Under the pieces are notes generated by a model. The model was given only the letters and a program-made list of their open reading frames with translations. It was not told where the DNA came from and searched no databases. The position numbers and the translations under genes were made by a program. Below, one piece after another: positions 1-18,002 of a stretch of 18,562 nucleotides of DNA. The stretch spans positions 1 through 18,562 of IMG/VR virus record IMGVR_UViG_3300030021_000030, one strand, 5' to 3'. How positions within the stretch are numbered: position 1 is the first letter of the stretch; the number at the start of each line of letters is the position of its first letter. This DNA is from a virus (lineage: Duplodnaviria; Heunggongvirae; Uroviricota; Caudoviricetes).

Positions 1-288
1 TCAATGGTTGGCGTCATTATCTTTTTCTCTTTCTGAACGTGAATATTGCGGTGGACGGTTCATCAGCTGTGGGGCAAGACGTTTTGCCACCTGAAGAATA
101 ACCACCACCGCAGCGGGAAACATGAGCAAAACACCGAGAAAAATCATCAGAATCTGCACTTCTGGCCGAGAAAATGGCTCAGGCAGCGACAGGGAGTCGC
201 TTACCGACAGCAGCGCCACCGCCAGTAGCATCATTCCGATAAATTCCAGTATCAACACGCCTTTAGGCAATTTACCGATCGCGCGCAT
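1..288 (-). CDS. ybjC: Small inner-membrane protein YbjC (DUF1418), 95 aa, complete
   Basis: 95-aa ORF whose sequence I recognise as E. coli YbjC; conserved ybjC-grxA-ybjM-ybjL synteny; stop codon at 1-3. Confidence 0.8.
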   Translation of the reverse strand: MRAIGKLPKGVLILEFIGMMLLAVALLSVSDSLSLPEPFSRPEVQILMIFLGVLLMFPAAVVVILQVAKRLAPQLMNRPPQYSRSEREKDNDANH

Positions 289-447
289 ACGCTTCCCTCT
301 GCAAAGTGAGCCTTCAGTCTAAAACTTTTCACTGTATTGTGTTTAACAGTTATAGCTTTTAGCAATTAATGCAACAGGTTAAACCTACTTTCAGCGAATA
401 CATTTTAGCGTGATCATTACAGGCATAAATCTATGAGGAGAGAAATA

Positions 448-705
448 ATGCAAACCGTTATTTTTGGTCGTTCGGGTTGCCCTTACTGTGTGCGTGCAAA
501 AGATCTGGCTGAGAAATTGAGCAATGAACGCGATGATTTTCAGTATCAGTATGTAGATATTCGTGCGGAAGGGATCACTAAAGAAGATCTACAACAAAAG
601 GCAGGTAAACCCGTAGAAACCGTGCCGCAGATTTTTGTCGATCAGCAACATATCGGCGGCTATACCGATTTTGCTGCATGGGTGAAAGAAAATCTGGACG
701 CCTGA
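448..705 (+). CDS. grxA: Glutaredoxin 1 (85 aa)
   Basis: Translation MQTVIFGRSGCPYCVRAKDL... has the CPYC dithiol active site and glutaredoxin fold signature. Start placed at the second ATG (448), preceded by GAGGAGAG Shine-Dalgarno, rather than the ORF-track start at 433. Confidence 0.9.
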   Translation: MQTVIFGRSGCPYCVRAKDLAEKLSNERDDFQYQYVDIRAEGITKEDLQQKAGKPVETVPQIFVDQQHIGGYTDFAAWVKENLDA

Positions 706-715
706 TCGTCTGACA

Positions 716-747
716 AGCCCTCGCGTTGAGGGCTTTACTGATTTTTT
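716..747 (+). terminator. Putative rho-independent terminator downstream of grxA
   Basis: Inverted repeat agccctc (716-722) / gagggct (728-734) with 5-nt loop, followed by a T-rich stretch (tttttt at 742-747). Overlaps the convergent ybjM stop. Confidence 0.45.
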
Positions 748-1112
748 CTGTGCTGTGGTTTAAACAAACTACTGATAAATAAGAAACACAGTGCCCCCAG
801 CGCACACCAGAACACCGCGCTTAGTAACCATGCCAGCTCTTGCCAGAATGAGCGCGTCGGTGAAAAAAACAGCCGCATAATGAGCATTGAACAGGGTGCC
901 GCCAGCATTGCGCCAAATAGAGGTTTCAGGACTTCTCTACGCTGTGAAAAGAAACTGGCAACTGCTCCAGGAAGAATGAAAAATAGCAAGCCGATTTCAG
1001 GATGCCCGGCAGCCCGAAAAGCGCCTTTCATGTGCGTCGCCAGAAAAAGGCACACCACAATGAAGAGGACAAAACAGCAGATTGCCCCCGCCCAACGTTG
1101 TTTATGTTTCAC
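735..1112 (-). CDS. ybjM: Inner membrane protein YbjM (125 aa)
   Basis: 125-aa hydrophobic ORF matching the E. coli YbjM sequence and position between grxA and ybjL. Confidence 0.8.
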   Translation of the reverse strand: MKHKQRWAGAICCFVLFIVVCLFLATHMKGAFRAAGHPEIGLLFFILPGAVASFFSQRREVLKPLFGAMLAAPCSMLIMRLFFSPTRSFWQELAWLLSAVFWCALGALCFLFISSLFKPQHRKNQ

Positions 1113-1381
1113 TCGTTCCTCCTGACACTGCGTCTATCGAACACATTTTTCGCCAGTGTGGCGTTCAGTAAGATAAAGCCGCTTCGCATTCCATGCTAAT
1201 ATAGGCCAACGCAATTCATATAGCCGTTGATACCTAATGTGATTACACTAGTAAAATATATTGTTACTTTACTATCGTTTAGGTGCGCTGAATGAATCTG
1301 CGCCCTGAATTCTGGTAAAAAACATTATCGTAAATTACCATTTCTTTCAACAGCTTACTAGTAAACAAGAAGTTAGCCTCC

Positions 1382-3067
1382 GTGAATATAAACGTCGCCG
1401 AATTGTTAAATGGGAATTACATTCTGTTATTATTTGTGGTCCTCGCGCTTGGGCTATGTCTCGGAAAGTTACGACTTGGTTCGATCCAACTGGGTAATTC
1501 CATTGGCGTTTTAGTCGTATCGCTGTTATTAGGCCAACAACATTTCAGCATTAACACCGATGCGCTTAATCTTGGCTTTATGCTGTTTATTTTCTGCGTC
1601 GGGGTCGAAGCCGGACCGAACTTTTTTTCCATTTTTTTTCGCGATGGGAAAAATTACCTAATGTTAGCACTGGTGATGGTTGGCAGTGCGCTGGTGATCG
1701 CCTTAGGGTTAGGTAAGCTGTTTGGCTGGGATATTGGCCTGACGGCCGGTATGTTAGCAGGCTCTATGACGTCGACACCGGTTCTGGTCGGTGCTGGCGA
1801 TACACTGCGTCATTTCGGCATGGAAAGCAGGCAGCTCTCACTGGCACTGGATAATCTGAGCCTCGGGTATGCCTTAACCTATTTAATCGGTCTGGTGAGT
1901 TTGATTGTTGGTGCGCGTTACTTGCCGAAATTGCAGCATCAGGACTTACAGACCAGCGCCCAGCAAATCGCCCGCGAACGTGGCCTGGACACTGATGCCA
2001 ACCGTAAGGTTTATTTACCGGTGATCCGCGCCTATCGCGTCGGCCCGGAGCTGGTGGCCTGGACCGACGGCAAAAATCTGCGTGAACTGGGTATTTATCG
2101 ACAAACCGGCTGCTACATTGAACGTATTCGACGTAACGGGATTCTGGCAAATCCAGACGGTGATGCCGTGCTACAAATGGGCGATGAAATAGCGTTGGTA
2201 GGCTATCCCGACGCCCATGCCCGACTCGATCCCAGCTTCCGTAACGGTAAAGAAGTTTTCGATCGTGACCTTCTCGACATGCGTATCGTCACTGAAGAAG
2301 TGGTCGTTAAAAACCATAACGCTGTAGGTAAACGTCTCGCACAACTGAAGTTGACCGATCACGGTTGCTTCCTTAACCGCGTCATTCGTAGCCAGATTGA
2401 GATGCCGATAGATGACAACGTCGTGCTTAACAAAGGTGACGTTTTACAAGTCAGCGGCGATGCCCGCCGCGTAAAAACCATCGCCGATCGCATCGGCTTT
2501 ATCTCGATTCACAGCCAGGTCACTGACCTGCTGGCATTTTGCGCCTTCTTTGTTATTGGGCTGATGATCGGGATGATCACCTTCCAGTTCAGCACATTCA
2601 GTTTCGGCATGGGGAACGCTGCCGGGTTGTTATTCGCCGGAATTATGCTGGGCTTTATGCGTGCTAACCACCCGACCTTCGGTTACATTCCGCAAGGTGC
2701 ATTAAGCATGGTGAAAGAGTTCGGCTTGATGGTGTTTATGGCAGGCGTTGGTCTGAGCGCCGGTAGCGGTATTAATAACGGCCTGGGCGCGATTGGCGGT
2801 CAGATGTTGATTGCCGGATTAATTGTCAGTCTTGTGCCCGTGGTTATCTGTTTCTTGTTCGGTGCTTATGTATTGCGAATGAACCGCGCACTGTTGTTCG
2901 GCGCAATGATGGGCGCACGCACCTGCGCGCCGGCAATGGAGATCATCAGTGATACAGCTCGCAGTAACATCCCTGCGCTGGGCTATGCGGGCACCTACGC
3001 AATCGCCAACGTCCTGCTGACGCTGGCAGGGACAATCATCGTCATGGTATGGCCAGGATTAGGATAA
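1382..3067 (+). CDS. ybjL: Putative transporter YbjL (AAE-family permease with two central TrkA-C/RCK_C domains), 561 aa, GTG start
   Basis: 561-aa ORF beginning [20 protein letters not shown]...; hydrophobic N- and C-terminal halves separated by a soluble region; start codon is GTG at 1382. Confidence 0.9.
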
Positions 3068-3179
3068 AACTGAAGTTGCCCTGAAAATGAAATTTTTTTG
3101 CACAACCGCAGAACTTTTCCGCAGGGCATCAGTCTTAATTAGTGCCACTGCTTTTCTTTGATGTCCCCATTTTGTGGAG

Positions 3180-3225
3180 CCCATCAACCCCGCCATTTCG
3201 GTTCAAGGTTGATGGGTTTTTTGTT
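3180..3225 (+). terminator. Rho-independent terminator downstream of ybjL
   Basis: 10-bp perfect stem cccatcaacc (3180-3189) / ggttgatggg (3207-3216) followed by TTTTTT (3217-3222). Confidence 0.6.
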
Positions 3226-3302
3226 GCCTGAAATTTATGCCTTTTAAAATCATGATGTTAGAAGCACTGTTTTTTAACGATGGCGACAAATTGGCGGCAG
3301 CG

Positions 3303-3521
3303 TCAAAGAGAGAGCGCCACCTGTCCTGATTTCATTGGATGCGGCTGAACCGGATTTGACTCTTTTGGCGTTGCAATCGAACGAACAAAAGTTTCATGGG
3401 TAACAAAAGTATGGCTGCAGTTAATGTTCTGGCACTGGTTGTAACGCTCTTTGGTCAATGAAGATACCTGAAAACTGCTGCGAGTATGGGCGGCACTTCC
3501 ACACAGTGGGCAAATCATCAT
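3303..3521 (-). CDS. ogr: Ogr-family late-gene transcriptional activator (zinc finger), 72 aa
   Basis: MMICPLCGSAAHTRSS...KERYNQCQNINCSHTF: Cys-X2-Cys ... Cys-X4-Cys zinc-binding motif typical of P2 Ogr / P4 Delta. Start moved to the internal Met so the product is 72 aa, the length of P2 Ogr. Confidence 0.85.
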   Translation of the reverse strand: MMICPLCGSAAHTRSSFQVSSLTKERYNQCQNINCSHTFVTHETFVRSIATPKESNPVQPHPMKSGQVALSL

Positions 3522-3611
3522 TTTTCGAGTTCTCCCCATTTTTGCTAAATTCACAATAATGATACCGCATTATTCCATTTTGAAAACTTAAAAGTTCTCC
3601 ATTGCGAAGAA

Positions 3612-4712
3612 TCATTCCATTTCGAAATCATCAATCTTCACTTCAAGCTCCAGACTGGTCGTAAAACCGTTATCCGGGCTGACGGTATGTGTCAGAGTCG
3701 TAATGGTCCATTCCGCATCATCTATCGGCTGTTTAAAACCACTGACCTTCACAGGCATTTCCGTGTAGAGATCTGCCCGCCCTTCCGCCAGTTGTAGCGA
3801 GAATGACGCAACGCCGCGTTGCAGGCGTTCCCACTGCATTTTTGCCGCTCGTTCGGCGTTGCTCCGGTTGGCATAAGTGCGATTAAGTACCAGCACGTTT
3901 TCATCCGTCCCCACCAGGTAATCGCCCTGCTTCGCTTCCGGCTCTTTCTTCTGCTTCTTAGTCCTGTGCTTACGCTTCACCGTAGTGCTTTCTTTCTTCG
4001 CGGGTTCGCGGGTATGCAACCAGCTGGCAATTACCCCCGTGTAGGCTCCGCGATCTGCCAGGGTAAAGCGGTGACTGTCGCCGTCCTTGCGTGTGATAGT
4101 GATCACCGGCAGTGGTTTACCAGTGGCGCTTTTGCCCTGTCCCTGCCGGATGAATAACAGATTGCCATTTTTCACCGACGCGATGGCACCGTACTGGCGC
4201 GCCAGCCGCATCAGAAAACTGCCGTCACTCTCATTAGTCTGGTCTATATGCTCCACGGGCTTATCCGACAGGTCTTTACCCAGTGCCATCTTCAGCTTGT
4301 GACGCGCGGCTATTTCCTTCACCACTTCCCCGACAGTGGTCTTGTGCCACGATTTTTCACGGCGGGTATTCAGCGTTTCCCTAAAATCAGCACTTCGCGC
4401 CCGGATAGTCAGGCGATCCGGTGCGCCAGTGTGTTCAATCTCGTCCACCGTGAATGCCCCTTTCGGGAAAAGCGGCTGCCCCTTCCAGCCCAGCGCCAGC
4501 GTAATGACCGCACCACGGCGCGGCAGCACGATTTTTCCGTCGGCGTCGTCCAGCTCCAGATCAAGCTGGTCCGCTTCAAAGCCCCGGTTATCCGTCAGCG
4601 TAAGCCCCATCAGGCGGTTGACCAGCACAGTGGTGATATCCTTGCCTTCAATACTGATGCTGAATGCTGGAGTTTTGTTGCCTTTGTTAAGCAGTTCAGA
4701 GCTGAAATTCAC
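3612..4712 (-). CDS. D: P2 gpD-like tail protein (late control gene D family)
   Basis: 366-aa ORF with the LTDNRGFEADQLDLELDDADG and WAV-type motifs characteristic of gpD; lies between U and ogr as in P2. Confidence 0.9.
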   Translation of the reverse strand: MNFSSELLNKGNKTPAFSISIEGKDITTVLVNRLMGLTLTDNRGFEADQLDLELDDADGKIVLPRRGAVITLALGWKGQPLFPKGAFTVDEIEHTGAPDRLTIRARSADFRETLNTRREKSWHKTTVGEVVKEIAARHKLKMALGKDLSDKPVEHIDQTNESDGSFLMRLARQYGAIASVKNGNLLFIRQGQGKSATGKPLPVITITRKDGDSHRFTLADRGAYTGVIASWLHTREPAKKESTTVKRKHRTKKQKKEPEAKQGDYLVGTDENVLVLNRTYANRSNAERAAKMQWERLQRGVASFSLQLAEGRADLYTEMPVKVSGFKQPIDDAEWTITTLTHTVSPDNGFTTSLELEVKIDDFEME

Positions 4713-5194
4713 GACAGCAGCCCTCCCACCGTTTTACTGATATCGCTTAAGGCAGACGTTGCCGTATCCTGCAAATTATTCAGCTGCGCACTGAGATCAC
4801 CGAACATATCGGACAGGGATTCATCCACCCGTTTGAGCGACAGGGTGAACTCAATCCGGCGCGGCATACCATCGCGGAAAAACTCCGTTTTAGTCTGATT
4901 CAGTCCCTCAATCACATACATGCCGTAAATCGTGCCGCTGCCTTCAATCAGGGGCCATGCTTTTCCCTGTTCTGCCATCTGCTCCAGAGCCAGCAACGAC
5001 AGCCTGCCGCCCGTTATCTCTGGCATAAGAACACCAGAAAGCGTCAGCATGTCGTTGTCCGGTCCCAGAAACTGCGTGGACGGACGTCGGTTGACCCGGC
5101 TGTTTGCCGCATGTCGCCAGCTGCGTTGATACTGCAGTTCCTGATACGGCACAGTGCGCAGCATAAACACGTACAATCCCAGCACCATCATCAT
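4709..5194 (-). CDS. U: P2 gpU-like tail protein
   Basis: 161-aa ORF in the P2 position between T and D; 4-nt ATGA overlaps with both neighbours. Confidence 0.85.
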   Translation of the reverse strand: MMMVLGLYVFMLRTVPYQELQYQRSWRHAANSRVNRRPSTQFLGPDNDMLTLSGVLMPEITGGRLSLLALEQMAEQGKAWPLIEGSGTIYGMYVIEGLNQTKTEFFRDGMPRRIEFTLSLKRVDESLSDMFGDLSAQLNNLQDTATSALSDISKTVGGLLS

Positions 5195-8100
5195 GCGTCG
5201 TATCCCCCCTGATCGCTGTAGTTACTCCTGGCTTTTGCCTTCAGCCTGCGTTCACGTTCATCAAGCTGACGTGCCACCTCCCGCGCAATATCCTGCGCAC
5301 TTTGTCCTGGCTGCGTCTGAATGATGATCTGCATCGGTGCCTCAATCCGCTGAACGGGCGGCACAGTGGCTGCACGACTCACCATCGCTTCGTCGCCTTT
5401 CGCGGGAAGTGCCAAAGGGTGCAACGGTGGAAACTCTGCTGGCGCGGCAGCAACGCCCATCATTCCGGCAACAACGGCAGCCAGTGCAGCTGTATTTCTC
5501 CGGCTGGTCACATTTGCCGGGCCGTTAACAATTTCCGGCCCGTTTTCACCGACGATGCCAAACTGCCCGCGCGGGATATACCCGCCGCTGTCATACATCC
5601 CCGCAAAGCCATATCCCCATGACGGAAAACCACCCGATGGCATCATCACTTTACCGTCTGCATTCACCGTCGCAGGTTGCTGACGCGTCACGCTTTCCGG
5701 CAGTTTCGCCTTTGCAGCTTCTTTACTGACAATGCCGAGTTTATCCAGCAACCAGGAAACACCGGATTTCAGGGAGTCCAGCGGATGCATGACCATATTC
5801 AGCCCTTCCGCCAGTGCCTCCCCGAATCGTCGCCCCATTGCCGCTGCGCTCTGCAGTTCGGCAGAGGTCGACTTAACAGGCGTCAGCAGATTAGTAAACC
5901 AGCCCCACAGCGCCTGTACTTTGTCGCCAATCCACTGAAACACAGGCTTAAGTGGTTCGAATGCAGCACTGATGGGACCTGCCGCCGCTTTGAATCCTTC
6001 CACCACGCCACCGAGAAATGCGGTGATGGGTTGCCAGTATTTCCAGACAACCAGCGCTACGCCTGCCAGTGCAGTAACCACAAGACCTATCGGACTGAGC
6101 AGAGCACCTAACAGACCAGATATGGCATACAGGGCAACGCGCAGCATCGCCAGCGGACCGGATGCCAGCACACGAAGCACCGTGCCTGCGGAGGCCAGTC
6201 CACCGCGCAGTACCGCCAGAGGATTCATAAACATCACAGCAACAGCACGTAAACCGGATAATCCAGACCGCAAAAGTGCAACCGGCGCACCTGCTACAGT
6301 TTTCAGGACATTTCCCGTCAGTGATGCCGTGCGGCGCAAAGACGACAACGGCGCAGTAAGTAAACCTGCGGCGTTGCCCGATGAAGCAAGCCCGCGTCGC
6401 AGCAGTGCCAGTGGTGCGCAAGCTAACCAGGACAACGCGCTGCTGGTTCGTGTTACTGCTGCCGTAACGGAAGGTAACGTTTTGATACCCAGCACAGCAG
6501 CCAACACCACAGCCAGGGTGCCGAGGCCCACAGTAACAGCAGCCACAACCGCGGCTACTTTCATCAGTGTGCCCGTCAGTTCAGGGTTAGCTTCCACCCA
6601 GCGACGCAACGCCCCCGTGATGCTTTTCACCGTGTACAGAATATCCATCAGCGGCTGGCGCAGCGTTTCGCCCAGGCTGCTGAAGGTGTTCTGCGCTCCG
6701 GTTTTGACCAGCAACCACTGCGCAGAAAGTGAGTCCTTGTTAATGTCGGATTCTTTCTGCATCGAACCGAGCGCATCATTGCCCGCTGTCAGTTTTAGCT
6801 GGCGCTGCAGTTCCGGCAGGTTGTTTGCCAGTTTCGCCGCATCATCGCCAAACTCTTTACCAAACAACATGGTCATGGCAGACAGGCGCTTATCCTGCGG
6901 CAGTGCGTTCACCTTCTCCAGTACGCGCTGGATAGTTCCCATCGCATCCTTCGTCATCTGCTTTTCAATCACTTCAGGATTGAGTTTCAGCAGATTCATT
7001 CCTTCAAAGAAACTCTTGCTTTGCATGGTCGCAATGGACAATTCACGCACCATCGCGTTGGCAGCACTGGCAGCGACCTCCGGCGCAGCCCCCAGTGTCA
7101 GGAAGGTGGAACCCAGCGCCGCCGCTTTACGATAATCCAGACGATCAGCCACACCGCCCAGGCGTTGCATGACATCAATGATGTCTGCCCCTTTCGACAT
7201 AGCGTTATCATCCAGATAGTTCAGCGCATCACCGAGCTGTTCAATATTGCGGGTTGGTATTTTGTAGAGCTGGGCGATTTTCCCCAGACTTTCTGACAGT
7301 TCATCCGCTGGCAGCTCAAAGGCTGTTGCCGCCTTTGCTGCCGTACTGGCGAAGGCCAGCAGGTCACGTTTCTGGTCCTCCCAGCTGTCGTCAGGGTTTG
7401 CCACATTCATGCGCGCACCACCTTCAACCAGTGCGGCGAAGTCCACAGCACCGTTTTCCATTGGCAGCTGTTCACTGGCAGCTTTGATGGCATCCTGCAT
7501 TTCGTAAAAACGCGCAGTGCGGTTGCCATTATCGTCACGCAGACCATTGACCTGCTTTGCCACACCTTTCATGGCATCTTCCATGCTGGTATAGCTTTTT
7601 ACCGCCGCCATCACTGGCGCGCCCATTGCCAGCCCTGCAGCCGTGGTGGTGGCTCCGGCTCCTGCGATGCGATCGCGCACTTCAAGCCGTCTTGAGTATT
7701 GTTCTCTGGCAGCCTTCATCCGTGCCTGTTGTTCACCCAGACGTTTAAGTGCTTTTTGCTGGCCCTCCAGTGCCTGACGAGTTTCTTCGGCATTTTTCTT
7801 AAGTTCTCGCTGGGCACTACTGAGTTGTCTGGTATCAATCCCTGATTCTTTAAGTGCCTGACGTTGTCTCTGGACCGCCCCCAACAAGCCGTTATAGGTC
7901 TGCTGAAGTTCCTGTACTCGTGTTTTGGCCTGACTGAATAACTTTGCCTGCGCGGCGGTTGGCCTGTTAGTGGCAGCAAATTGTGTGGCGAGTTTTGCCG
8001 CCTCTTCGCGGGCTGCGTTCAGGTTGTTGGCTGTTATGGCTAGTTGCGAGCGCGTCTTGCGAAATTCATCAATTCTGCCAGCCTGCTTATTCAGTTCTTT

Positions 8101-8229
8101 GAGGCTGTTTCGGGTATTCTGAATTGCGCCAGCCAGCTCTTTCGAACTGGCCTGTGCAGCACGGAATGGGCGGGTGAGTTTGTCAACCGCATTAAGAATG
8201 ACCTGCAGGCGCAGGTTATTATCACTCAT
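5191..8229 (-). CDS. T: Tail tape-measure protein (gpT-like), 1012 aa
   Basis: Very long ORF with an N-terminal coiled-coil/Ala-rich region and central hydrophobic Gly/Ala repeats, in the canonical position after E/E'. Its ATG overlaps the E' stop (ATGAGTGA). Confidence 0.9.
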   Translation of the reverse strand: MSDNNLRLQVILNAVDKLTRPFRAAQASSKELAGAIQNTRNSLKELNKQAGRIDEFRKTRSQLAITANNLNAAREEAAKLATQFAATNRPTAAQAKLFSQAKTRVQELQQTYNGLLGAVQRQRQALKESGIDTRQLSSAQRELKKNAEETRQALEGQQKALKRLGEQQARMKAAREQYSRRLEVRDRIAGAGATTTAAGLAMGAPVMAAVKSYTSMEDAMKGVAKQVNGLRDDNGNRTARFYEMQDAIKAASEQLPMENGAVDFAALVEGGARMNVANPDDSWEDQKRDLLAFASTAAKAATAFELPADELSESLGKIAQLYKIPTRNIEQLGDALNYLDDNAMSKGADIIDVMQRLGGVADRLDYRKAAALGSTFLTLGAAPEVAASAANAMVRELSIATMQSKSFFEGMNLLKLNPEVIEKQMTKDAMGTIQRVLEKVNALPQDKRLSAMTMLFGKEFGDDAAKLANNLPELQRQLKLTAGNDALGSMQKESDINKDSLSAQWLLVKTGAQNTFSSLGETLRQPLMDILYTVKSITGALRRWVEANPELTGTLMKVAAVVAAVTVGLGTLAVVLAAVLGIKTLPSVTAAVTRTSSALSWLACAPLALLRRGLASSGNAAGLLTAPLSSLRRTASLTGNVLKTVAGAPVALLRSGLSGLRAVAVMFMNPLAVLRGGLASAGTVLRVLASGPLAMLRVALYAISGLLGALLSPIGLVVTALAGVALVVWKYWQPITAFLGGVVEGFKAAAGPISAAFEPLKPVFQWIGDKVQALWGWFTNLLTPVKSTSAELQSAAAMGRRFGEALAEGLNMVMHPLDSLKSGVSWLLDKLGIVSKEAAKAKLPESVTRQQPATVNADGKVMMPSGGFPSWGYGFAGMYDSGGYIPRGQFGIVGENGPEIVNGPANVTSRRNTAALAAVVAGMMGVAAAPAEFPPLHPLALPAKGDEAMVSRAATVPPVQRIEAPMQIIIQTQPGQSAQDIAREVARQLDERERRLKAKARSNYSDQGGYDA

Positions 8230-8658
8230 CGTTGGCCCCGCTTCTCTGAATCGCTTTATACCGCCATTCCAGCACTTCGGTCAGCGGCATAACGTCAGTA
8301 ACGGATGGCGGCCAGTGAAAGATGGTGGCGATATCAGCCACCAGATCGTCAACCGTCAGGCTGTCGGTAAACCGGCAAGCACCGACTTCTTCAACAAAAA
8401 AGTGACAACCTCAACCGACATGGCAGTGAGATCTGCCGGGTCCATCTCTGCAATTTCCTGTGCAGTCAGTGCCGGACTGGAGATGCGGGGGATCACGGTC
8501 ATCATCGCGTTTACATCCATATCCATAATGGCCTGCAGGCGTGTACCGCGCAGCGCACCGGACTGCGGTTTACGCAGCACAATTTCGGTGATTTCTGTTT
8601 TACCGCGCTTGATGGGGGTATCCAGTTGAATGGTCTTTTCAGTCTGCTTATCGCTCAT
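8222..8658 (-). CDS. E: Tail assembly chaperone gpE and the frameshifted fusion product gpE+E' (E alone is 8356..8658; E' extension is in the -1 frame, 8222..8395)
   Basis: 100-aa gpE-like ORF; the T_TTT_TTG slippery heptamer sits at codons F87-L88. Manual translation of the -1 frame from the slip site gives a 59-codon open extension (VEEVGACRFTDSLTVDDLVADIATIFHWPPSVTDVMPLTEVLEWRYKAIQRSGANDE) ending at a TGA that overlaps the T start codon. Confidence 0.8.
8395..8401 (-). other. Programmed -1 ribosomal frameshift slippery site T_TTT_TTG (E/E')
   Basis: Minus-strand sequence ACT TTT TTG read directly from plus-strand caaaaaa (8395-8401); same heptamer as the P2 E/E' site. Confidence 0.75.
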
Positions 8659-8712
8659 TTTGCTGTCCTGTCAATTGGGTTCTGGCGCGGTATCCCGCGC
8701 CGTTCAGATATA

Positions 8713-9228
8713 TCAGAGGCCGAGGGCGTTGCGGTGCGCTTCCATCAGGTCCACACCGTCCACAATTTCCACCATGTTGATAAGGTCCACTTCATAGAGC
8801 ACCTCACCATTGATGGTCAGCTTCGCGTAGCTGTTGGTACTGGTCACTTTGGTGGTGTTGCTTTCGCCCGTCTTCCACTCGCCGGAATCCACTTCTTTGT
8901 GACGTCCACGCACGACAAGCTCCACGGCCTGCACTTCCCCGGTATCGTCACGCTGAATAGAGCCGGTAAAGCGCAGCTGGATGCCATCCACCGTGGCTTT
9001 ACCCATCTGTTTAAACAGCAGCAATTCAGTACCACCAATGGAAAATTCTGTGTCCAGCGCACTGTCATCAAGCCCCAGATCCACATCAACTGCACCAGGC
9101 ATTCCGCCGCCGCGATACTTCTCATATTTGCGGGTGAATTTCGGCAGCGTCAGCGACTCAACGATCCCCTGCCAGTTGTTCCCGTCGTTAAACAGGTTCA
9201 GGTGTTTTAATTTGCGTGGTAAAGCCAT
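8713..9228 (-). CDS. FII: Major tail tube protein (gpFII-like)
   Basis: 171-aa ORF beginning MALPRKLKHLNLF..., recognisable as the P2 FII tail tube family; follows FI. Confidence 0.9.
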   Translation of the reverse strand: MALPRKLKHLNLFNDGNNWQGIVESLTLPKFTRKYEKYRGGGMPGAVDVDLGLDDSALDTEFSIGGTELLLFKQMGKATVDGIQLRFTGSIQRDDTGEVQAVELVVRGRHKEVDSGEWKTGESNTTKVTSTNSYAKLTINGEVLYEVDLINMVEIVDGVDLMEAHRNALGL

Positions 9229-9237
9229 GTTGTCCCC

Positions 9238-10410
9238 TTACGCGCTGACCTGGCTGGCGAAATTCACCAGGTACTGATCGGTGATGCGCTGACGCAGCAT
9301 CAGGTTTTCAAGTGGCGGCACTGGCGTGTAGTCGTAGTCGATGGTGAGTTTTCCGGCTTTCAGCGTGTCTTTGTCGTTCACCGACTCATCCAGCCAGCAA
9401 TCACCACCAATGAGATAGCCCTGACTGACCAGGCTGCGCATTTTGGCGCGGATACCTTCGATAATGTCGCGGGCCAGCGACGGGTTAAGCGGTTTATCCA
9501 CCGCCCACATGTGTGCTTCTGCCATCGTGTCCATCAGCACCTGCGCCGTGCGGGTGTAGTTTTCGAAGGCAAAGAGCGGGTCATCACTCAGACAGCGGGA
9601 ACCCCAGAAGCGGAAACCGTCTTTACGCACAAGCGTAGTGACGTCGTTCTGGTTCAGCAGACCTGCATCGGTTGCCGGGTCCTGCAGATCCCAGAACACA
9701 TCTGCAGAAATTCCGGTGACACCGTTCACGCCCACGTTGGACAGGCTTTTGTGCCATCCGGTCTGCTCGTCAATTTTGGCGCGCAGACCAAGCGCACGGG
9801 CGGTGGCATATGCCGTTGCTTCGGCATTCAGCACCGTGTCCCAGCCAGTAAAGTCAGGCCAGATCAGCATCCCTTCGCGCTGGCTGAAGTTTTCGCGGTA
9901 AGTGATCGCCTCCTGCACTGTCTTGCAGCCATACGCTGACAGGTAAGCAAATCCACGCAGGCTTTGCGCCACGCTCAGCAACTCAGTAGCTACCGCCTTG
10001 GTGTCGTGGCCTGGCACGCCGAGAATGCGCGGTTTAACGCCGAGCTGTGACTGGGCAGATAACAGGGCTTTCATACCTGTTTTTTTACCTTCAGCAGTCA
10101 CTGCGCCGATGATATTGGTCGTGGTTTCGTCTTCCGTTTCACCCTGCGGCACACGCACAACAATGGTCACGGGTTTTGCCTGGTCAGCGATGGCATCCAG
10201 CGAACGGGCCAGAGTACCTGACTCACCCGCTTTACCGCTGGCAGTCAGCACATCAGTGATCAGCACGGGTTTATTAAGAGGAAACATTTTTGCATCGGCA
10301 TCATCGCCCGTGCAGACCATACCCACGATGGCGGTGCTCACCGTGGTAATAGATCGGGTGCCTTCGTTGACTTCAACAACGCGCACCCCGTGGTGGTAAT
10401 CCTGAGCCAT
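9238..10410 (-). CDS. FI: Contractile tail sheath protein (gpFI-like)
   Basis: 390-aa ORF ([19 protein letters not shown]...[11 protein letters not shown]...[20 protein letters not shown]) closely resembling P2 FI along its whole length. Confidence 0.9.
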
Positions 10411-10486
10411 AGTGGCGAACCTCCTGATTGGATTAGGCTTCGCCCTATGTTGAAGTGATTGTGCCTGACAAACAGCTAAGCGCAGT

Positions 10487-10504
10487 TGTGTCGTTATTCA
10501 CACA
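10487..10504 (-). promoter_or_regulatory. Candidate Ogr-dependent late promoter activator site (TGT-N12-ACA) upstream of FI
   Basis: TGTgtcgttattcacACA dyad in the 142-bp gap between the invertase stop and the FI start. P2/P4 late promoters carry TGT-N12-ACA centred near -55. Confidence 0.4.
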
Positions 10505-10552
10505 AAATGACGGTATTTGTCTACTTGCAGGGATAATCAAAATAATGCTGAT

Positions 10553-11119
10553 TCAGGGGGATTCATTGCTCTTATTTGCCGGAAATTTTCTATAAATGGT
10601 AGAAACGCCTACATCAAAAATCAGTGCAATACGCTGTCTTGATTCTCCGGCCTCGAGTAAACGCCCAATCTGTGCCCACTGTTCGGTGGTCAACTTAGGA
10701 CGGCGTCCACCTACTCTGCCTTTGGCACGAGCTGCAGCCAGCCCTGCCATGGTACGTTCAACTATCAGTTCGCGTTCCATTTCAGCCATGGCACCCATGA
10801 CATGAAAAAAGAAACGGCCCATTGGGGTGCTGGTATCAATACTGTCAGTCAGACTTCGGAAATTCACGCCACGCTGACGCAACTCTTCTATCAGCGTAAC
10901 AAGATGCCGCATACTGCGCCCCAACCTGTCCAGCTTCCAGACAACCAGAGTGTCTCCTGCCGATAGTGTCCTGAGCAGTTTTTTAAGCCCCGGTCTGTCG
11001 GACTTAGTGCCACTGATTTTATCCTCAAAAATCCGCTCACATCCCGCGCAGTTCAGTGCATTACGTTGCAAATCGGTGTTCTGGTCATTTGTTGACACGC
11101 GTACATAGCCAATAAGCAT
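10553..11119 (-). CDS. Serine recombinase, DNA invertase of the Gin/Hin/Pin/Cin family
   Basis: Translation from the internal Met: MLIGYVRVSTNDQNTDLQ...VVWKLDRLGRSM...FFFHVMGAMAEMERELIVERT...C-terminal HTH. The catalytic Ser is in the YVRVSTNDQ motif. GGGA Shine-Dalgarno lies upstream of the ATG at 11119. Confidence 0.85.
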   Translation of the reverse strand: MLIGYVRVSTNDQNTDLQRNALNCAGCERIFEDKISGTKSDRPGLKKLLRTLSAGDTLVVWKLDRLGRSMRHLVTLIEELRQRGVNFRSLTDSIDTSTPMGRFFFHVMGAMAEMERELIVERTMAGLAAARAKGRVGGRRPKLTTEQWAQIGRLLEAGESRQRIALIFDVGVSTIYRKFPANKSNESP

Positions 11120-11174
11120 GATCAATCCCCTGAATAAAAACCGTGGATGATGCCAGTTAGCCATTATCTCTGCA

Positions 11175-11200
11175 TTTTCATAAACGTTGGTTTGGGAGAA
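11175..11200. repeat. gix/hix-like 26-bp invertase crossover site (invertase-proximal)
   Basis: TTTTCATAAACGTTGGTTTGGGAGAA fits the Hin/Gin site consensus TTnTCnnAAACCnnGGTTTnnGAnAA and is 20/26 identical to the reverse complement of the site at 12275-12300. Confidence 0.6.
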
Positions 11201-11545
11201 GCGGCGAAAAGGGGTGTGGGCACAGGAGATAATCAGATACCGGATATGGGAGCATTCGCTTCTGGTTCGGGATGGTTCAGGCTACCAGGTGGATATATTG
11301 TTCAGTTTGGCACTTTTGCAGGAAACACGACCCGCTTTATCAGTGGACACTTCCCTATACCATTCCCTAATCAGCCGATGGTTTCAGTCAGTGTTATGTC
11401 TGATGCCGTTCAGTCAGACCCGTCGATTCCTGCCCCGCAGGTTTTGTCTGTAAATTTTGAACATATCAGTAATTCAGCGTGGCGTGTGGCAACCAGTGAT
11501 ATCTCACAGCAATACAGATTCAGTTATATTTCGATAGGACGGTAG
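11201..11545 (+). CDS. Promoterless alternative tail-fibre C-terminal segment (Sv'-like), expressed only after inversion
   Basis: Open frame runs through the gix-like site and encodes ...GWFRLPGGYIVQFGT..., parallel to the current H C-terminus ...GYFELPGGLLLQWGH... There is no plausible independent start; the ORF-track Met at 11147 lies inside the invertase gene region. Confidence 0.6.
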   Translation, partial: AAKRGVGTGDNQIPDMGAFASGSGWFRLPGGYIVQFGTFAGNTTRFISGHFPIPFPNQPMVSVSVMSDAVQSDPSIPAPQVLSVNFEHISNSAWRVATSDISQQYRFSYISIGR

Positions 11546-11547
11546 AA

Positions 11548-11973
11548 ATGCAGAAATATATTTTCAGTGCCGATAAAAATGCGTTTTTCCCTGTGGAGCT
11601 TAAAATCGCTTATCAGGAATCCGGCGAATGGCCCGATGATGGAATCGAAATTGACGACACTGTTGCCGCCGAATTTATGAAGGAAGCACCAGAAGGAAAA
11701 TACAGAGGTGTCATCGACGGAATGCCAGCATGGATTGATATTCCACCACCAACTCATGAGGAACAAATTGCTGCAGCCGAATTGGAAAAGCAGCAATTGA
11801 TTAATCAGGTCAACGAATACATAAACAGTAAGCAGTGGCCTGGCAAATCGGTGCTTGGACGCCTGAAAGATGATGAATTAACGCAGTACAATTTATGGCT
11901 GGATTATCTTGATGCGCTGGAAGCGGTGGACGTATCCAGCGCTCCAGATATTGTTTGGCCCTCCTCAACCTAA
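11548..11973 (+). CDS. Tail fibre assembly chaperone (Tfa/gpG/Mu U family)
   Basis: 141-aa ORF immediately after the Sv' segment (3-nt gap) with the conserved C-terminal Tfa-like region ...QYNLWLDYLDALEAV...; opposite strand to H. Confidence 0.75.
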   Translation: MQKYIFSADKNAFFPVELKIAYQESGEWPDDGIEIDDTVAAEFMKEAPEGKYRGVIDGMPAWIDIPPPTHEEQIAAAELEKQQLINQVNEYINSKQWPGKSVLGRLKDDELTQYNLWLDYLDALEAVDVSSAPDIVWPSST

Positions 11974-12001
11974 ATAAAAAGCCGCTCTACGCGGCTTTCT
12001 C

Positions 12002-13336
12002 TTACATCCCGAGTGCAAAATACGTATAGCTGTCAATATTGTTTACCGTGCCGTTTCCATTCCATCCATAAAGGCTAAAGCTAGTTAAGGTATAATTAGA
12101 TGACGTCACATACCGACCATCAGTTGTGATTTTATGCGGCAGTACAATGAACGGAGTGACGTTAAACGACTTCTTAAACTGTATAATGGCACTTGACGCA
12201 TGAATCGAGCCGTGCCCCCATTGCAGCAGCAATCCTCCCGGTAATTCAAAGTACCCATCAGCCTCCAGTAACCGCTCTCCAAAACCAAGGTATGTGAGAA
12301 GACCAGTTACATCCTTTCCACTCAAATTAGTCAGCGTATTGTCCAGCGGTTGTTTACCTGCCAGTGCATTAAGCATTGTCGTGGCAAAGTTCGGGTCATT
12401 CCCCAGCGCCGCCGCCAGTTCGTTCAGTGTATCCAGTGCCGCAGGTGCAGAACCCACCATTGCCGCAATCGCCGATTTCACAAATGCCGTGGTGGCAATT
12501 TGTGTATTGTTGACCGACTGTGCCGCAGTAGGTGCGGTTGGCGTTCCGGTGAGTGCCGGACTCGACAGCGGCGCTTTCAGTGCCAGCGCATTGTTAATGG
12601 TGGTACTGAATTTCGGATCATTGTTAATGGCTGCGGCTATTTCTTTCAGCGTGTCCAGCGTGGCTGGCGCACCATTAATAAGAGCCGTCAGAGCCGCCTG
12701 AACAAACTCGGTGGTCGCAATCTGCGTGGTGTTATTCCCTGCTGCTGGCGTTGGCGCTTTGGGTGTCCCGGTAAACGTCGGACTTTCTTTGGGTGCATAC
12801 TGTGAATGCGGGTCCGGTGCGGCAAGATGTTTTGCCATCAGGTCATCCACGTACACCTTCAACTCCAGTGCTTTGTCATCCACATACTTGCGGGTTGCCA
12901 GCACTACAGCAGGGTCGATTTTCAGGGTGATATTGTCCGTGCTGCTGGTTATCAGCACCATGCGCACGGTCTGGGTGCGCCCGCTGCCTTCAGCCAGTTG
13001 CGGCTTATAGCTTTCCGGGCAGTTGCCCACGGCAATCAATGCCCCGGACTCATCAAACAGGCCCACTTCACGTATCCACCAACCACCCTCGTTTTCAGGG
13101 ATCACCTGTTCAGCAATAATCTGGCTGCTGTTCTGCGGGTCGATATAAAGCATATTCAGCGCAGCCCGGCGTTTCTCATTTACCAGTGCCGTCTGCTTTG
13201 CGTCCGGCGTTGGCAATACTCCGCCGCCATCGCCCACCGCCATATGAGTAATTTTTAGCGGCACACCGAGCGCGGCGGCGCTGGCAAGTTTCGCCGCGCC
13301 AATATCCGTTAGCAGGGTATAAAATTTTGTGCTCAT
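12002..13336 (-). CDS. H: Tail fibre protein (gpH-like): constant N-terminal part plus the currently fused variable C-terminal tip
   Basis: 444-aa ORF with the conserved P2/Mu/P1 tail-fibre N-terminus (MSTKFYTLLTDIGAAKLASAAALG...) and repeated TQIATTEFV / TQIATTAFV collar motifs. The last ~90 codons lie inside the invertible segment. Confidence 0.9.
   Translation of the reverse strand: MSTKFYTLLTDIGAAKLASAAALGVPLKITHMAVGDGGGVLPTPDAKQTALVNEKRRAALNMLYIDPQNSSQIIAEQVIPENEGGWWIREVGLFDESGALIAVGNCPESYKPQLAEGSGRTQTVRMVLITSSTDNITLKIDPAVVLATRKYVDDKALELKVYVDDLMAKHLAAPDPHSQYAPKESPTFTGTPKAPTPAAGNNTTQIATTEFVQAALTALINGAPATLDTLKEIAAAINNDPKFSTTINNALALKAPLSSPALTGTPTAPTAAQSVNNTQIATTAFVKSAIAAMVGSAPAALDTLNELAAALGNDPNFATTMLNALAGKQPLDNTLTNLSGKDVTGLLTYLGFGERLLEADGYFELPGGLLLQWGHGSIHASSAIIQFKKSFNVTPFIVLPHKITTDGRYVTSSNYTLTSFSLYGWNGNGTVNNIDSYTYFALGM
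12275..12300. repeat. gix/hix-like 26-bp invertase crossover site inside H
   Basis: CTCTCCAAAACCAAGGTATGTGAGAA; its reverse complement TTCTCACATACCTTGGTTTTGGAGAG encodes LTYLGFGE of H and matches the site at 11175-11200 in inverted orientation. Confidence 0.6.
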
Positions 13337-13938
13337 GGATTCACTCTCATTGTGTCAATAACATGGACCGCCCCGCCTTCATGCGCGGTGCCGCCGGAAA
13401 TAATTGTTTCGTTGATATACGGATAGATCGTGATTTCTTCGCCAAGATAGCTGGCGGCTCCCACCCAATGCGGGCCGCTGGTCTGCAGGTTGATGGACAT
13501 GCCGATCATGTGACGGCTACATGGTTTGGCATCGCTTATCAGTCGCTCAAGTTCCAGATAGGTATCTTCAGTGATGCCCTGGTCCTGCACGCCGATATCC
13601 AGACGAAACGTGCCCGGTGTTTCTCCGGTATGCCACCACTCAATAATGCGGATCAGAAAGCCGAACGGTTCCACTACCCGCCGCACTGCACTGGTGGTTC
13701 CTTTATGCTGATGAATATAAAAAGCATCCTTCACCACCTGACGTTTGACGCTTTCAGTCCAGCCCTCATCCCAGCGATCCACAGAGAACGCCCAGGCGAG
13801 ATAAGGCAGGAAGCTGACCGGACAGGTCGCCGGATTCCACAAGTCACGAAGCGGCACCTGCAGATCAGAAATCCCGCTGCAGGTTTGCGCCAGTCGGCGC
13901 TCCAGTGGTGTTGAACCCGGTGGCAGCAGACTATTCAT
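13333..13938 (-). CDS. I: Baseplate protein gpI-like
   Basis: 201-aa ORF in the P2 position between J and H with 4- to 8-nt coupled overlaps. Confidence 0.8.
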   Translation of the reverse strand: MNSLLPPGSTPLERRLAQTCSGISDLQVPLRDLWNPATCPVSFLPYLAWAFSVDRWDEGWTESVKRQVVKDAFYIHQHKGTTSAVRRVVEPFGFLIRIIEWWHTGETPGTFRLDIGVQDQGITEDTYLELERLISDAKPCSRHMIGMSINLQTSGPHWVGAASYLGEEITIYPYINETIISGGTAHEGGAVHVIDTMRVNP

Positions 13939-14839
13939 CCGTTCCTCCGTTGGTTACGCTCCACTGCGTACATGATGCCGCCTGTGTTTTGTTCAGGACC
14001 ACATCCGCCAGAGGAGAAGCCAGCTCCACACGCTGCACACCCTCAACATGCAGGGCGGCAAAGATGGCGCTACGGCGAATATCCCGACCAAGACGCGTCT
14101 GACTGGCGATGTACTTCTGCAGGCTGGCTTTTGCCGCTGCCATTACCGGCTCTGCTTCCGGTCCCGGATAGAGAAAAATGGTGGCTTCCACGCGATACGG
14201 GATGATTTCTGCGCTGCGAACCGTAAGACGGTCAGCCACCGGGCGTACGTTCTCACTGTTCAGAGCTTTTTCCACCACGTCCAGCAGGTCCTTTTCTGCA
14301 GTTCCATCGCCTTCGCGGCTCAGAACAGTCAGCACCACCTCTGCAGGTGCCGGGCTGGTTGCACTGGCATCCGCCACCCGACCGTCGGCGCTTCGGGCAT
14401 GAAATTCATAAGCTGCAGTTGGCCCCGCAACTGAAAGTCCTTCAAAGGCTGCAGGCACACGCAGGCGTAACGCTTCATCACTTTCCATCACAGCCGCAAC
14501 AGGCGGTACAGCGTCATCATCAGCAGGTGTCACCGTCAGGCGTTTCACGTTGTAGTTGGCAGCGAGCTGGTCAAGATCGCTGCCCATCGCGTAAGCCACC
14601 ATCACAGCCTGCGCGGCTTCGTTAATGCGCTGGCGCAGAAGCAACTCACGGTAAGCGTTCTCCTGCAGCAATTTGGTGACGGGTTCAGATTCAAGCTCCA
14701 GCGTACGCATCACTGCTTCCTGCTCATCTTTCGGATGAAGCGCCACAAATTCGGCCTTGCGTTCGGAAAGCAGCGTCTCAAAGTCCGGCACATCCACAAT
14801 CTGCGGCGCAGGTAACTGCGAAAGGTCAATCACTGCCAT
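13931..14839 (-). CDS. J: Baseplate protein gpJ-like (302 aa from the Met at 14839)
   Basis: MAVIDLSQLPAPQIVDV... matches the P2 gpJ N-terminus. The ORF-track start at 14878 is rejected in favour of the conserved Met. Confidence 0.85.
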   Translation of the reverse strand: MAVIDLSQLPAPQIVDVPDFETLLSERKAEFVALHPKDEQEAVMRTLELESEPVTKLLQENAYRELLLRQRINEAAQAVMVAYAMGSDLDQLAANYNVKRLTVTPADDDAVPPVAAVMESDEALRLRVPAAFEGLSVAGPTAAYEFHARSADGRVADASATSPAPAEVVLTVLSREGDGTAEKDLLDVVEKALNSENVRPVADRLTVRSAEIIPYRVEATIFLYPGPEAEPVMAAAKASLQKYIASQTRLGRDIRRSAIFAALHVEGVQRVELASPLADVVLNKTQAASCTQWSVTNGGTDE

Positions 14840-15185
14840 TCTCTGCTCCTGTTGATACGGAAAGGGAAACAGGCACACCGTTATTACGCCGCCCGGTCAG
14901 CTCCACCACCATTGAACCGTCAAAATTGCTGTTGATGGTGATGGAATCCAGCGTCAGCCGTGGCTCCCAGCGACTCAGCGCCACATACACTGCCGACATG
15001 ACCTGCAGGCGTAATGCCGGATTTTGTGGCTGGTCTATCAGTGTCGACAACAGGGAACCATATTCCCGACGGGCAATGCGGCTACCCTGCGGTGTCAGTA
15101 GAATGTCCCGCACCGACTGACGCAGATGGTCAATATCAGTAATGGCTTTACCGCTGGTATTGTTCATCCCGCTATAAAGCGTCAT
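14826..15185 (-). CDS. W: Baseplate wedge protein gpW-like (GPW/gp25 family)
   Basis: 119-aa ORF between V and J, of the size and position of P2 gpW. Confidence 0.85.
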   Translation of the reverse strand: MTLYSGMNNTSGKAITDIDHLRQSVRDILLTPQGSRIARREYGSLLSTLIDQPQNPALRLQVMSAVYVALSRWEPRLTLDSITINSNFDGSMVVELTGRRNNGVPVSLSVSTGAENGSD

Positions 15186-15760
15186 ACCGGACCTCCAGTC
15201 GTGTCGCCGCCTTTCAGGACGCCAGTATGCTGATGCGCATCAACCACGATCCCGTTAGAACTCATCGCTCCGCCACCCTGGGTAACGCCACCATTGATCA
15301 CCACTTCGCTGTTAATGCGCGTGCGGTCAGCCTCCAGTACAAACTCACTGGTTTTCATGGTGATGTTATCAGCGGCCTCAATGACCATTGATTTGATGCC
15401 CCTGACATACCAGCTCCCGGTGGCGGGTTCGTATTCAAACCAGCCACCGTCAGGATGTTCTGTCACGCAGGCGTCCGCCGACGTCGACGGTGGTGCGAAC
15501 TGATTCGAATAGACAGCGGGCAGCGCAAAGGCAGTCTCCAGATTGCCTCCCAGACTCAGCAGCACCACCTGCTCACCTTCCGATGGTTTCCACCATGTGC
15601 GGGCATTACCCGCGCGCAGCGTCAGCCAGCTGATCCAGTTGGTTTCAAGGTCGCCCGTTTTCACCCGGCAAAGCCAATTCTCCCGGTCCACTTCGGTAAC
15701 TACACCTGTGCGGATCAGATTGGTGATAAGGCGCATGATTTCGGTTAATTGTGCGTTCAT
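15182..15760 (-). CDS. V: Baseplate spike/assembly protein gpV-like (193 aa from the Met at 15760)
   Basis: MNAQLTEIMRLITNLIRTGVVTEVD...RTWWKPSEGEQ... closely parallels the P2 gpV N-terminus; the longer ORF-track start at 15826 is unlikely. Confidence 0.85.
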   Translation of the reverse strand: MNAQLTEIMRLITNLIRTGVVTEVDRENWLCRVKTGDLETNWISWLTLRAGNARTWWKPSEGEQVVLLSLGGNLETAFALPAVYSNQFAPPSTSADACVTEHPDGGWFEYEPATGSWYVRGIKSMVIEAADNITMKTSEFVLEADRTRINSEVVINGGVTQGGGAMSSNGIVVDAHQHTGVLKGGDTTGGPV

Positions 15761-15806
15761 ACCGTATATATTAAACATTTGAAATAATATCTTCCAAACG
15801 GCATAA

Positions 15807-15837
15807 TTGTACTGAGGATGACACAAATGATTATAAA
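15807..15837 (+). promoter_or_regulatory. Candidate sigma70 promoter for the ATPase/TOPRIM cassette, in the divergent V/cassette intergenic region
   Basis: TTGTAC (15807-15812), then TG-n-TTATAAA extended -10-like element (15828-15837); AAGGA Shine-Dalgarno at 15861-15865, 7 nt before the ATG at 15873. Confidence 0.3.
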
Positions 15838-15872
15838 TTTAAGTAGCTCAACTAATAATAAAGGATACATAG

Positions 15873-17129: not shown

Positions 17130-17973
17130 TTCTAATGCAGAAAACTTTTCTTGGTCTAATGAAGCGGAAAATGTGATCAGTTTATTTTATGATGCTGATA
17201 TTATGGTCTATGTTGAAGGTGAAGATGACATTGCTTTTTGGGAAATAATTTTTAAAAAAAATGGTCGTTTTAATGTAGAAGTTCAAGATGTTGGTGGATG
17301 TGAAGCTTTACAACCATATATCGAAAAAATAACCTCAGGAGAAATAAACGCCATAGTTGCCAGAGATTCGGATCTAAACCATTTTTCTGACAACATAGTA
17401 AAGCATACAAATATTATTTACACAAAGGGATATTCAATAGAAAACACAATCATTGATGAAAAAATCATATCACACATACTCAAAAACACAGGCCGTTTTT
17501 GCACGAAAAAAATGCAGGAAATAGATGTGGAAAATTGGCTTTCTAATTTCTATAGCAACATTGAGAACTTAATAATACTAGATATTCACAATCATTTAAA
17601 TAAATTAGGATGCTCCGTAATTGGTGATTCCTGTGATCGTTTTATGCAATCAAGAAATTCATACAATATATGCAAGGAAAAAATAGATGAATATATCAAT
17701 AGACTACCTGAATCGTTTACTACTAATGGTTTAGCAGAAAAAAACAACATTCAATTCCCAGAAAATACATCTATAAATCATTGGGTGAAAGGGCACTTTC
17801 TTTTCTCAGCATCATTAAGATTTATAACAAACTTTTTGGCATCCATCAATAAAAAAACCTCTATATCCAAGGATAGTTTTTACGCAAACATCTTGTCTGC
17901 ATTTGAGATTTTTTATACAGAAGAACATGCTGATTATAGTTATTACAATCAAAAGATAGGGGCCATCACATAA
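17116..17973 (+). CDS. TOPRIM/DUF4435-like putative nuclease, 285 aa; candidate AriB-like effector
   Basis: N-terminal VYVEGEDD (conserved Glu, aa 34) and ARDSD (DxD, aa 84-86) resemble TOPRIM metal-binding motifs of OLD/DUF4435 proteins. The start overlaps the ATPase stop by 14 nt, with a GAGAGA Shine-Dalgarno inside the upstream gene. Confidence 0.7.
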   Translation: MLINDSNAENFSWSNEAENVISLFYDADIMVYVEGEDDIAFWEIIFKKNGRFNVEVQDVGGCEALQPYIEKITSGEINAIVARDSDLNHFSDNIVKHTNIIYTKGYSIENTIIDEKIISHILKNTGRFCTKKMQEIDVENWLSNFYSNIENLIILDIHNHLNKLGCSVIGDSCDRFMQSRNSYNICKEKIDEYINRLPESFTTNGLAEKNNIQFPENTSINHWVKGHFLFSASLRFITNFLASINKKTSISKDSFYANILSAFEIFYTEEHADYSYYNQKIGAIT

Positions 17974-17982
17974 AAAAATAAA

Positions 17983-18002
17983 GGCTGGCTTTTATGCCAG
18001 CC
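17983..18002 (-). terminator. Hairpin terminator at the 3' end of S, preventing late-operon read-through into the cassette
   Basis: ggctggc (17983-17989) / gccagcc (17996-18002) stem with 6-nt loop. On the minus strand it is followed by TTTATTTTTT; on the plus strand it directly follows the cassette stop codon. Confidence 0.5.

Follow-up and report, generated by a model that had tools for sequence, protein, structure and literature searches.

Several temperate phages integrate into the 3′ ends of stable RNA genes: 186 does so in tRNA-Ile, HP1 in tRNA-Leu and Fels-2 and SopEΦ in ssrA, while small RNA (sRNA) loci serve the same purpose in the case of ryeB in Salmonella and of ryeE/cyaR for P2-type phages (PMC3448106, PMC3603311). 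sRNA genes have been discussed as phage targets (Bobay et al. 2013, PMC3603311). For the P2-type prophages Rybb*W, Rybb*B and Rybb*Cr of E. coli W, B and Crooks, one of them, rybB, is the published insertion site, given as 'rybB ncRNA' (Archer 2011, PMC3032704, Table 2). The prophages ΦECO1 (E. coli HS, 916812–948276), ΦECO2 and ΦECO3 share one common integration site (Nilsson 2011, PMC3448106), hotspot #29, found in 109 genomes, contains only Felsduovirus prophages and lies within rybB (Hochhauser 2023, PMC10121019), and the island Kpn38RybB is placed 'precisely within' rybB (Hudson 2014, PMC4048246).

We analysed an 18,562-nt stretch of caudoviral DNA (IMG/VR record IMGVR_UViG_3300030021_000030, positions 1 to 18,562; hereinafter the window), in which host genes meet the late genes of a prophage. 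We are highly confident that positions 3068–3302 of the window are the ogr-side junction (B-O-P′) of a 186/P2-type temperate myovirus inserted in the 3′ end of rybB, between ybjL and rcdA. The locus thus matches ΦECO1–3, the Rybb* prophages and hotspot #29 in position (ybjL–rybB/rcdA), in the 14-bp core found at the ends of ΦECO1, in phage type and in orientation, with ogr beside rybB and int beside rcdA. There is no substantial difference from these; the prophage in the window departs from them in its PARIS-like cargo and in details of its tail-fibre cassette. The Klebsiella elements 4LV2017 (Elveevirus), KP12 and Kpn38RybB likewise share a near-identical integrase (in the Klebsiella phage records), the same attP and rybB as the target, but in another host genus, where attB equals attP over ATGGGTTTTTTGTTGCCTG and then diverges. 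The phages using tRNA, tmRNA and other sRNA sites follow a shared logic, namely a heterobivalent tyrosine integrase, a target in the 3′ stem of an RNA gene and a replacement copy of that sequence in attP. In contrast to the tRNA and tmRNA sites, the rybB target is the terminator of an Hfq-type sRNA rather than a T-arm/acceptor stem, and exact identity in K-12-type E. coli extends over only 14 bp.

A megablast search with window positions 2700–3700 against 5426 complete E. coli genomes gave a match in 5419 of them. The junction ybjL–rybB–ogr–D, scored as occupied where at least 80% of the query was covered (i.e., ybjL plus ogr and gpD), is present in 1115 of the 5426, among them REL606 (E. coli B) and one strain that bears the name E. 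coli C; the reverse search, using a 401-bp K-12 span across the site, recovered an empty ybjL–rybB–rcdA arrangement in 4227. We found nothing in the literature on P2-like prophages under the names ybjL or ybjK–ybjL, the published name of the site being rybB. The original prediction held that the site, if confirmed, would be worth recording; it is not new, however, as the attachment site has been published as the rybB site (PMC3032704, PMC3448106, PMC10121019, PMC4048246) and is already known, well documented and very common. Hence, the discovery value is small, and the locus is best seen as a clean textbook case of a phage landing in the 3′ end of a conserved sRNA gene.

Position and type of the prophage end

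The features of the junction and its surroundings are as follows:

1–288, minus strand: ybjC, host gene at the start of the window
1382–3067, plus strand: ybjL, aspartate:alanine antiporter (open reading frame list; RefSeq annotation of S56 and K-12)
3110–3138, plus strand: putative sigma-E type promoter of rybB (AGAACTT, 17 nt, TCTTA; read by eye)
3144–3222, plus strand: rybB, host sRNA gene, intact in the lysogen (Rfam RF00110; same as in K-12)
3178–3222, plus strand: predicted Rho-independent terminator of RybB (stem 3178–3189/3207–3218, U tract 3217–3222; Rfam consensus structure and folds)
3212–3225: exact att core ATGGGTTTTTTGTT (alignments and junction listing; same in attB, attP and both junctions)
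3226–3238: imperfect core extension GCCTGAAATTTAT, phage allele; the K-12-type attB has ATCTAAAACTTAT
3239–3302: phage P′ arm of attP, collinear with the KP12 attP between core and ogr
3278–3299, minus strand: two direct 11-bp repeats, TGCCGCCAATT and TGTCGCCATCG, putative 186-type arm-type integrase sites
3303–3521, minus strand: ogr/Delta-type zinc-finger late-gene activator (translation; Pfam PF04606, E = 5e-22)
3612–4712, minus strand: gpD-like late control/tail protein (open reading frame list; annotation of the matching S56 stretch)

The host side reads ybjC–grxA–ybjM–ybjL, as the original prediction had it and in agreement with the RefSeq annotation of S56 and K-12. Its last protein gene ahead of the junction is ybjL, the stop codon of which ends at 3067; as ogr occupies 3303–3521, the gap between them (3068–3302) is 235 bp, again as predicted. 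The att-proximal phage gene, ogr, is also annotated by RefSeq in S56, REL606 and HS, and is followed by the gpD-like gene, the first of a P2-type tail cluster filling the remainder of the window. Thus, the ogr-proximal end of a P2-family prophage does lie directly downstream of ybjL, and it is the only prophage end in the window, the integrase end being outside it.

The other prophage end, the direct repeat and the crossover were therefore taken from proxies: K-12 represents the empty site, Klebsiella phage KP12 the contiguous attP, and S56, REL606 and HS the integrase-side junctions. E. coli S56 is the best whole-window match among complete E. coli genomes (98.4% identity over 96%) and is 99.9% identical to the window across the junction. 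Its prophage, of about 34 kb, runs from ogr adjoining rybB to a tyrosine integrase adjoining rcdA.

The prophage is of the 186/Fels-2 type (a temperate myovirus of the Peduoviridae) rather than P2 itself, so that the earlier designation 'P2-like' holds at the level of the family. The regulators of the proxies are CI, CII and Fil, as in the 186/Fels-2 type, and their integrase, which combines the Pfam domains Int_N and Phage_integrase, is about 96% identical in nucleotide sequence to those of Escherichia phage vB_EcoM-813R9 and Klebsiella phage 4LV2017, and 99% identical in amino-acid sequence to those of vB_EcoM-813R9 and Klebsiella phage Kp4880-1. Identity falls to about 55% with a Yersinia phage and Salmonella phage SEN1, to 49% with HP1 Int and to 39% with P2 Int. 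P2 shares the order ogr, att, int and the overall organisation of attP, in which direct arm repeats flank a core of about 27 bp on either side, but differs in its integrase, in arm repeats of the type tgTGGaCa, in its host site and in its C/Cox regulators. Accordingly, P2 sensu stricto was rejected on the integrase, the 186-type arm repeats and the regulators. That the landing site is the 3′ end of a conserved sRNA gene may account for a single integrase (99% identical in records of E. coli and Klebsiella phages) being able to serve hosts in several enterobacterial genera.

An alternative that concerns the state of this prophage is that the junction is a dead remnant, i.e., that it belongs to a cryptic prophage with att and integrase no longer functional, as in E. 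coli B. The heavily deleted REL606 prophage at the same site, the truncated one of EcPF15 and the frameshifted accessory genes of S56, the nearest relative, lend this some weight, as does the fact that the window covers only half of the prophage. Against this, the late/tail genes D, U, T, E, FII, FI, H, I, J, W, V and S are all open in the window and collinear with those of S56, whose prophage appears to be of full length, and the core and arm repeats are intact. We consider such a remnant unlikely, and it would in any case bear on the state of the prophage and not on the nature of the junction.

The att core and the rybB terminator

The original prediction proposed alignment with prophage-free E. 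coli as a check. In a pairwise comparison with K-12, the window is identical through 3225, retains 9 of 13 positions over 3226–3238 and is unrelated beyond 3238, where K-12 runs on into rcdA; likewise, the megablast match of prophage-free genomes such as K-12 ends at query position 539, equivalent to window 3238. From the opposite side, the search with the K-12 span showed that the rcdA-side match of occupied genomes begins at the equivalent of window 3212. Together, the 14-bp exact core and its 13-bp imperfect extension make up a 27-bp core at 3212–3238, within which the prophage boundary is fixed. Of the interval previously given for the junction, 3226–3302, the first base is indeed the first phage-specific one, while the att core itself lies just before it at 3212–3225; the placement is thus right to within about 15 bp.

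A second suggested check, a search for the direct repeat at the other prophage end, is borne out in the proxies S56, REL606 and HS by the 14-bp core. In these genomes and in EcPF15, the rcdA-proximal end has a second copy of the core together with the tyrosine integrase. On this side, the junction of S56, REL606 and HS consists of the phage arm, ATGGGTTTTTTGTT, the host-type ATCTAAAA(C/T)TTAT and the rcdA flank, which in S56 takes the form of a phage arm ending in ACCCGTTTACATAA, then ATGGGTTTTTTGTT, ATCTAAAACTTAT and the rcdA flank. In KP12, the unintegrated attP is contiguous, reading int, P arm, ATGGGTTTTTTGTT GTCTGAAATTTAT, P′ arm and ogr; to the left it is collinear with the integrase-side arm of S56 and to the right with window 3226–3320, such that window 3212–3320 as a whole aligns with it from core to ogr. 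The break is not due to chance because the 14-bp core recurs at the integrase end of S56, REL606 and HS and the KP12 attP joins both arms. The shared sequence is ATGGGTTTTTTGTT, as it is common to attP, attB and both junctions. In line with this, the published ends of ΦECO1 in E. coli HS, 916812 and 948276, are the first bases of two copies of ATGGGTTTTTTGTT, flanked by rcdA and ybjL, and the 4LV2017 record has attL and attR annotated on the same core, with the Klebsiella rybB at the ogr end.

The two copies of the core differ in their 13-bp extension in S56, REL606 and HS: on the side of ogr it is the phage allele, on the side of the integrase the host allele. Judging from these alleles, strand exchange in the proxy lysogens must have taken place inside 3212–3225 (window numbering), and the crossover interval in the window's own strain would be that of the proxies, mainly S56. 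For a host with the native GCCTGAAATTTAT allele, the crossover could be placed only to 3212–3238.

The same core is part of a gene. An Rfam scan of the whole window returned a single match, RybB (RF00110), on the plus strand at 3147–3225, with 105.3 bits as compared to a gathering score of 40 (E = 3.7e-21); it spans positions 1–79 of the 79 in the model, untruncated and with the terminator helix included. The 5′ end at 3144 follows the published RybB sequence. RybB is sigma-E dependent, and the putative promoter AGAACTT-N17-TCTTA, which ends 6 nt upstream of the RNA start, presumably resembles the sigma-E consensus. As compared to K-12, the insertion leaves the sequence of the RybB RNA unaltered. 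The hairpin folds with −24.1 and −25.2 kcal/mol (z −2.4 and −3.3), and none of 200 shuffled sequences is as stable as the latter fold; in line with the Rfam structure, it would act as the terminator of RybB, and it could additionally stop read-through from ybjL. A simple terminator scan of 2950–3650 on both strands, with loops restricted to at most 8 nt, gave no terminators; this does not weigh against the RybB hairpin, because that loop limit excludes a hairpin with an interrupted apical part. A tRNA target for the integration is excluded, as ARAGORN finds neither tRNA nor tmRNA genes in the window.

The hairpin had earlier been attributed to ybjL, rybB being overlooked, with the att core sought beside or beyond it. 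Instead, it is the Rho-independent terminator of rybB by its Rfam assignment (RF00110, 105 bits), and the core ATGGGTTTTTTGTT is the 3′ strand of that terminator stem plus the U tract. A plain ybjL terminator with the att core farther downstream in 3226–3302, apart from any host gene, has next to nothing to recommend it: the hairpin does lie in the orientation of ybjL, beginning 110 nt past its stop codon, and divergence from K-12 does start at 3226, but the hairpin is the 3′ third of the full-length RybB match, attP, attB and both junctions share only 3212–3225 and the imperfect 3226–3238, and within 3239–3302 nothing but the arm repeats recurs at the integrase-side junction. In annotation, the hairpin should hence be assigned to rybB, intact in the lysogen, and the label 'ybjL terminator' be avoided.

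For insertion into the 3′ end of rybB, we propose the following course. The tyrosine integrase, encoded at the far prophage end outside the window, would recombine attP with attB inside ATGGGTTTTTTGTT. As attP carries its own copy of the core, rybB survives, and the RybB RNA sequence and its terminator would be rebuilt unchanged. Downstream of int, the core of the phage would likewise close a small hairpin with a T run behind it. Phage DNA begins at 3226, with 3226–3238 as the right half of the 27-bp core and 3239–3302 as the P′ arm leading into ogr, and the two 186-type repeats in this arm would serve the N-terminal domain of the integrase.

Following the insertion, ogr and rybB are convergent. 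The scan detected no intrinsic terminator on the ogr strand ahead of the rybB antisense (3226–3302, minus), and the minus-strand fold is the complement of the RybB hairpin, with no U run after it. As the two genes converge with no recognisable terminator between them on the ogr strand, antisense read-through is conceivable in either direction: RybB read-through under sigma-E stress might extend antisense into ogr, or ogr transcripts might run antisense across rybB. That phage late induction is coupled in this way to an envelope-stress sRNA, or that the attB allele affects the efficiency of integration, would be a long shot on what the sequence offers.

Phage arms and attB alleles

The P′ arm at 3239–3302 shows no similarity to prophage-free E. 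coli. Published consensus sequences of arm-type sites are tgccGCCActt for the 186 type and tgTGGaCa for the P2 type (Nilsson et al. 2011, PMC3448106). On the minus strand, TGCCGCCAATT at 3289–3299 agrees with the 186-type consensus in 10 of 11 positions and the adjoining TGTCGCCATCG at 3278–3288 in 7 of 11. In the same orientation, the 20-mer TGGCGACAAAtTGGCGGCAG (window 3281–3300) is found again in the P arm; this copy lies in the 3′ end of int, at a distance of about 115 bp from the core. Each arm copy is a tandem of two 11-bp units, the P-arm copy being found in both KP12 and S56. In Enterobacter-group prophages, the sequence of the 42 nt that separate the core from the repeats has diverged, but the repeats and their distance to the core are kept. 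This conservation of repeats and spacing supports a functional role for them, and the integrase probably binds those at 3278–3299. The P arm further contains two copies of AACTTATTGTTTT, a possible accessory-factor site. In the integrase-side phage segment, a local 9-bp stem with a T run is predicted downstream of int, and may act as the int terminator; the 106-nt segment as a whole is no more stable than its shuffles (z −0.32).

Right after the 14-bp core, the attB of E. coli is dimorphic. The K-12 type, a diverged allele, has ATCTAAAACTTAT (3027–3039 of the extracted locus), which amounts to four mismatches to attP in the right half of the core, while the F11/Nissle type, seen in B2-type strains, has GCCTGAAATTTAT, identical to the phage attP. 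Thus, many E. coli (e.g., F11 and Nissle 1917) and Escherichia whittamii have an empty, native attB that equals the 27-bp phage core. About 1000 records match a 100-bp probe of the GCCTGAAATTTAT allele at 99% or more, a count that includes partial matches from occupied genomes. The attP-identical form apparently also occupies empty sites in an Enterobacter MAG, an Atlantibacter MAG and a Citrobacter genome, which were called empty from the look of their downstream flanks. The pattern of the rybB 3′ end followed by GYCTGAAATTTA was tried and rejected as a marker of occupied sites, with a host-like flank in at least 6 of 13 matching representative genomes; from its occurrence in empty sites we came to recognise that B2-type E. 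coli and other genera have the 27-bp phage core as their native attB. The two E. coli alleles could make the efficiency of integration differ from one phylogroup to the next.

The prophage-free rybB site of Nissle 1917 (NZ_CP007799.1, about 913966–914022; 331–387 of the extracted sequence) consists of the 27-bp core, TAA and a second 27-bp core, with the TAA matching the last bases of the phage P arm. This tandem may be the scar of an imprecise prophage loss. In the same assembly, ybjL is annotated as truncated. The 724-bp contig NZ_JBHLZP010001226.1, which carries the label Actinoallomurus acaciae, has 99.2% identity with the ybjL–rybB–rcdA region of E. coli and almost certainly reflects contamination of an actinomycete assembly. 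JAATUR010000002.1 (labelled E. coli SCPM-O-B-8794, a species representative) is 89.8% identical to the window over ybjC–ybjL, as compared to 90.8% for Escherichia whittamii, and SCPM-O-B-8794 may belong to another Escherichia species.

Cargo and related prophages at the rybB site

Between gpV (15182–15826, minus) and gpS (17992–18450, minus) the window codes for a PARIS-like defence pair on the plus strand (15873–17973), in which a 418-aa protein matches AriA (E = 7.6e-39) and a 285-aa protein matches AriB (E = 4.1e-22). Frameshifts split both of these genes in S56. Prophages of the rybB site carry defence cargo at fixed positions (PMC10121019), and the PARIS-like pair fits this pattern.

A serine invertase (10553–11164, minus; Pfam Resolvase and HTH_7) adjoins the tail-fibre cassette. 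The sole tail-fibre assembly gene (11548–11973, plus) and a spare fibre C-terminus (11147–11545, plus) are oriented opposite to the fibre gene H (12002–13336, minus); S56 has an extra tail-fibre assembly gene on the strand of H. No long inverted repeat was found at the invertase/tail-fibre cassette (10553–13336).

E. coli EcPF15 (NZ_CP054227.1, extracted locus 20543–38534) has a truncated P2/HP1-like prophage in the same rybB site. Still present are int, CI, CII, the replication genes, portal, terminase and capsid, but hypothetical genes take the place of the entire tail half and of the usual end near ogr, and past the core and GCCTG the sequence is unrelated to the window. The rybB-site prophage of REL606 (extracted 18542–42697) is defective through deletion of the capsid-to-lysis and tail sheath-to-D regions. 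Between its replication and portal genes it carries a retron reverse transcriptase with an effector (extracted 27893–29941), in agreement with the placement of retron Ec86 on Rybb*B (Archer et al. 2011, PMC3032704).
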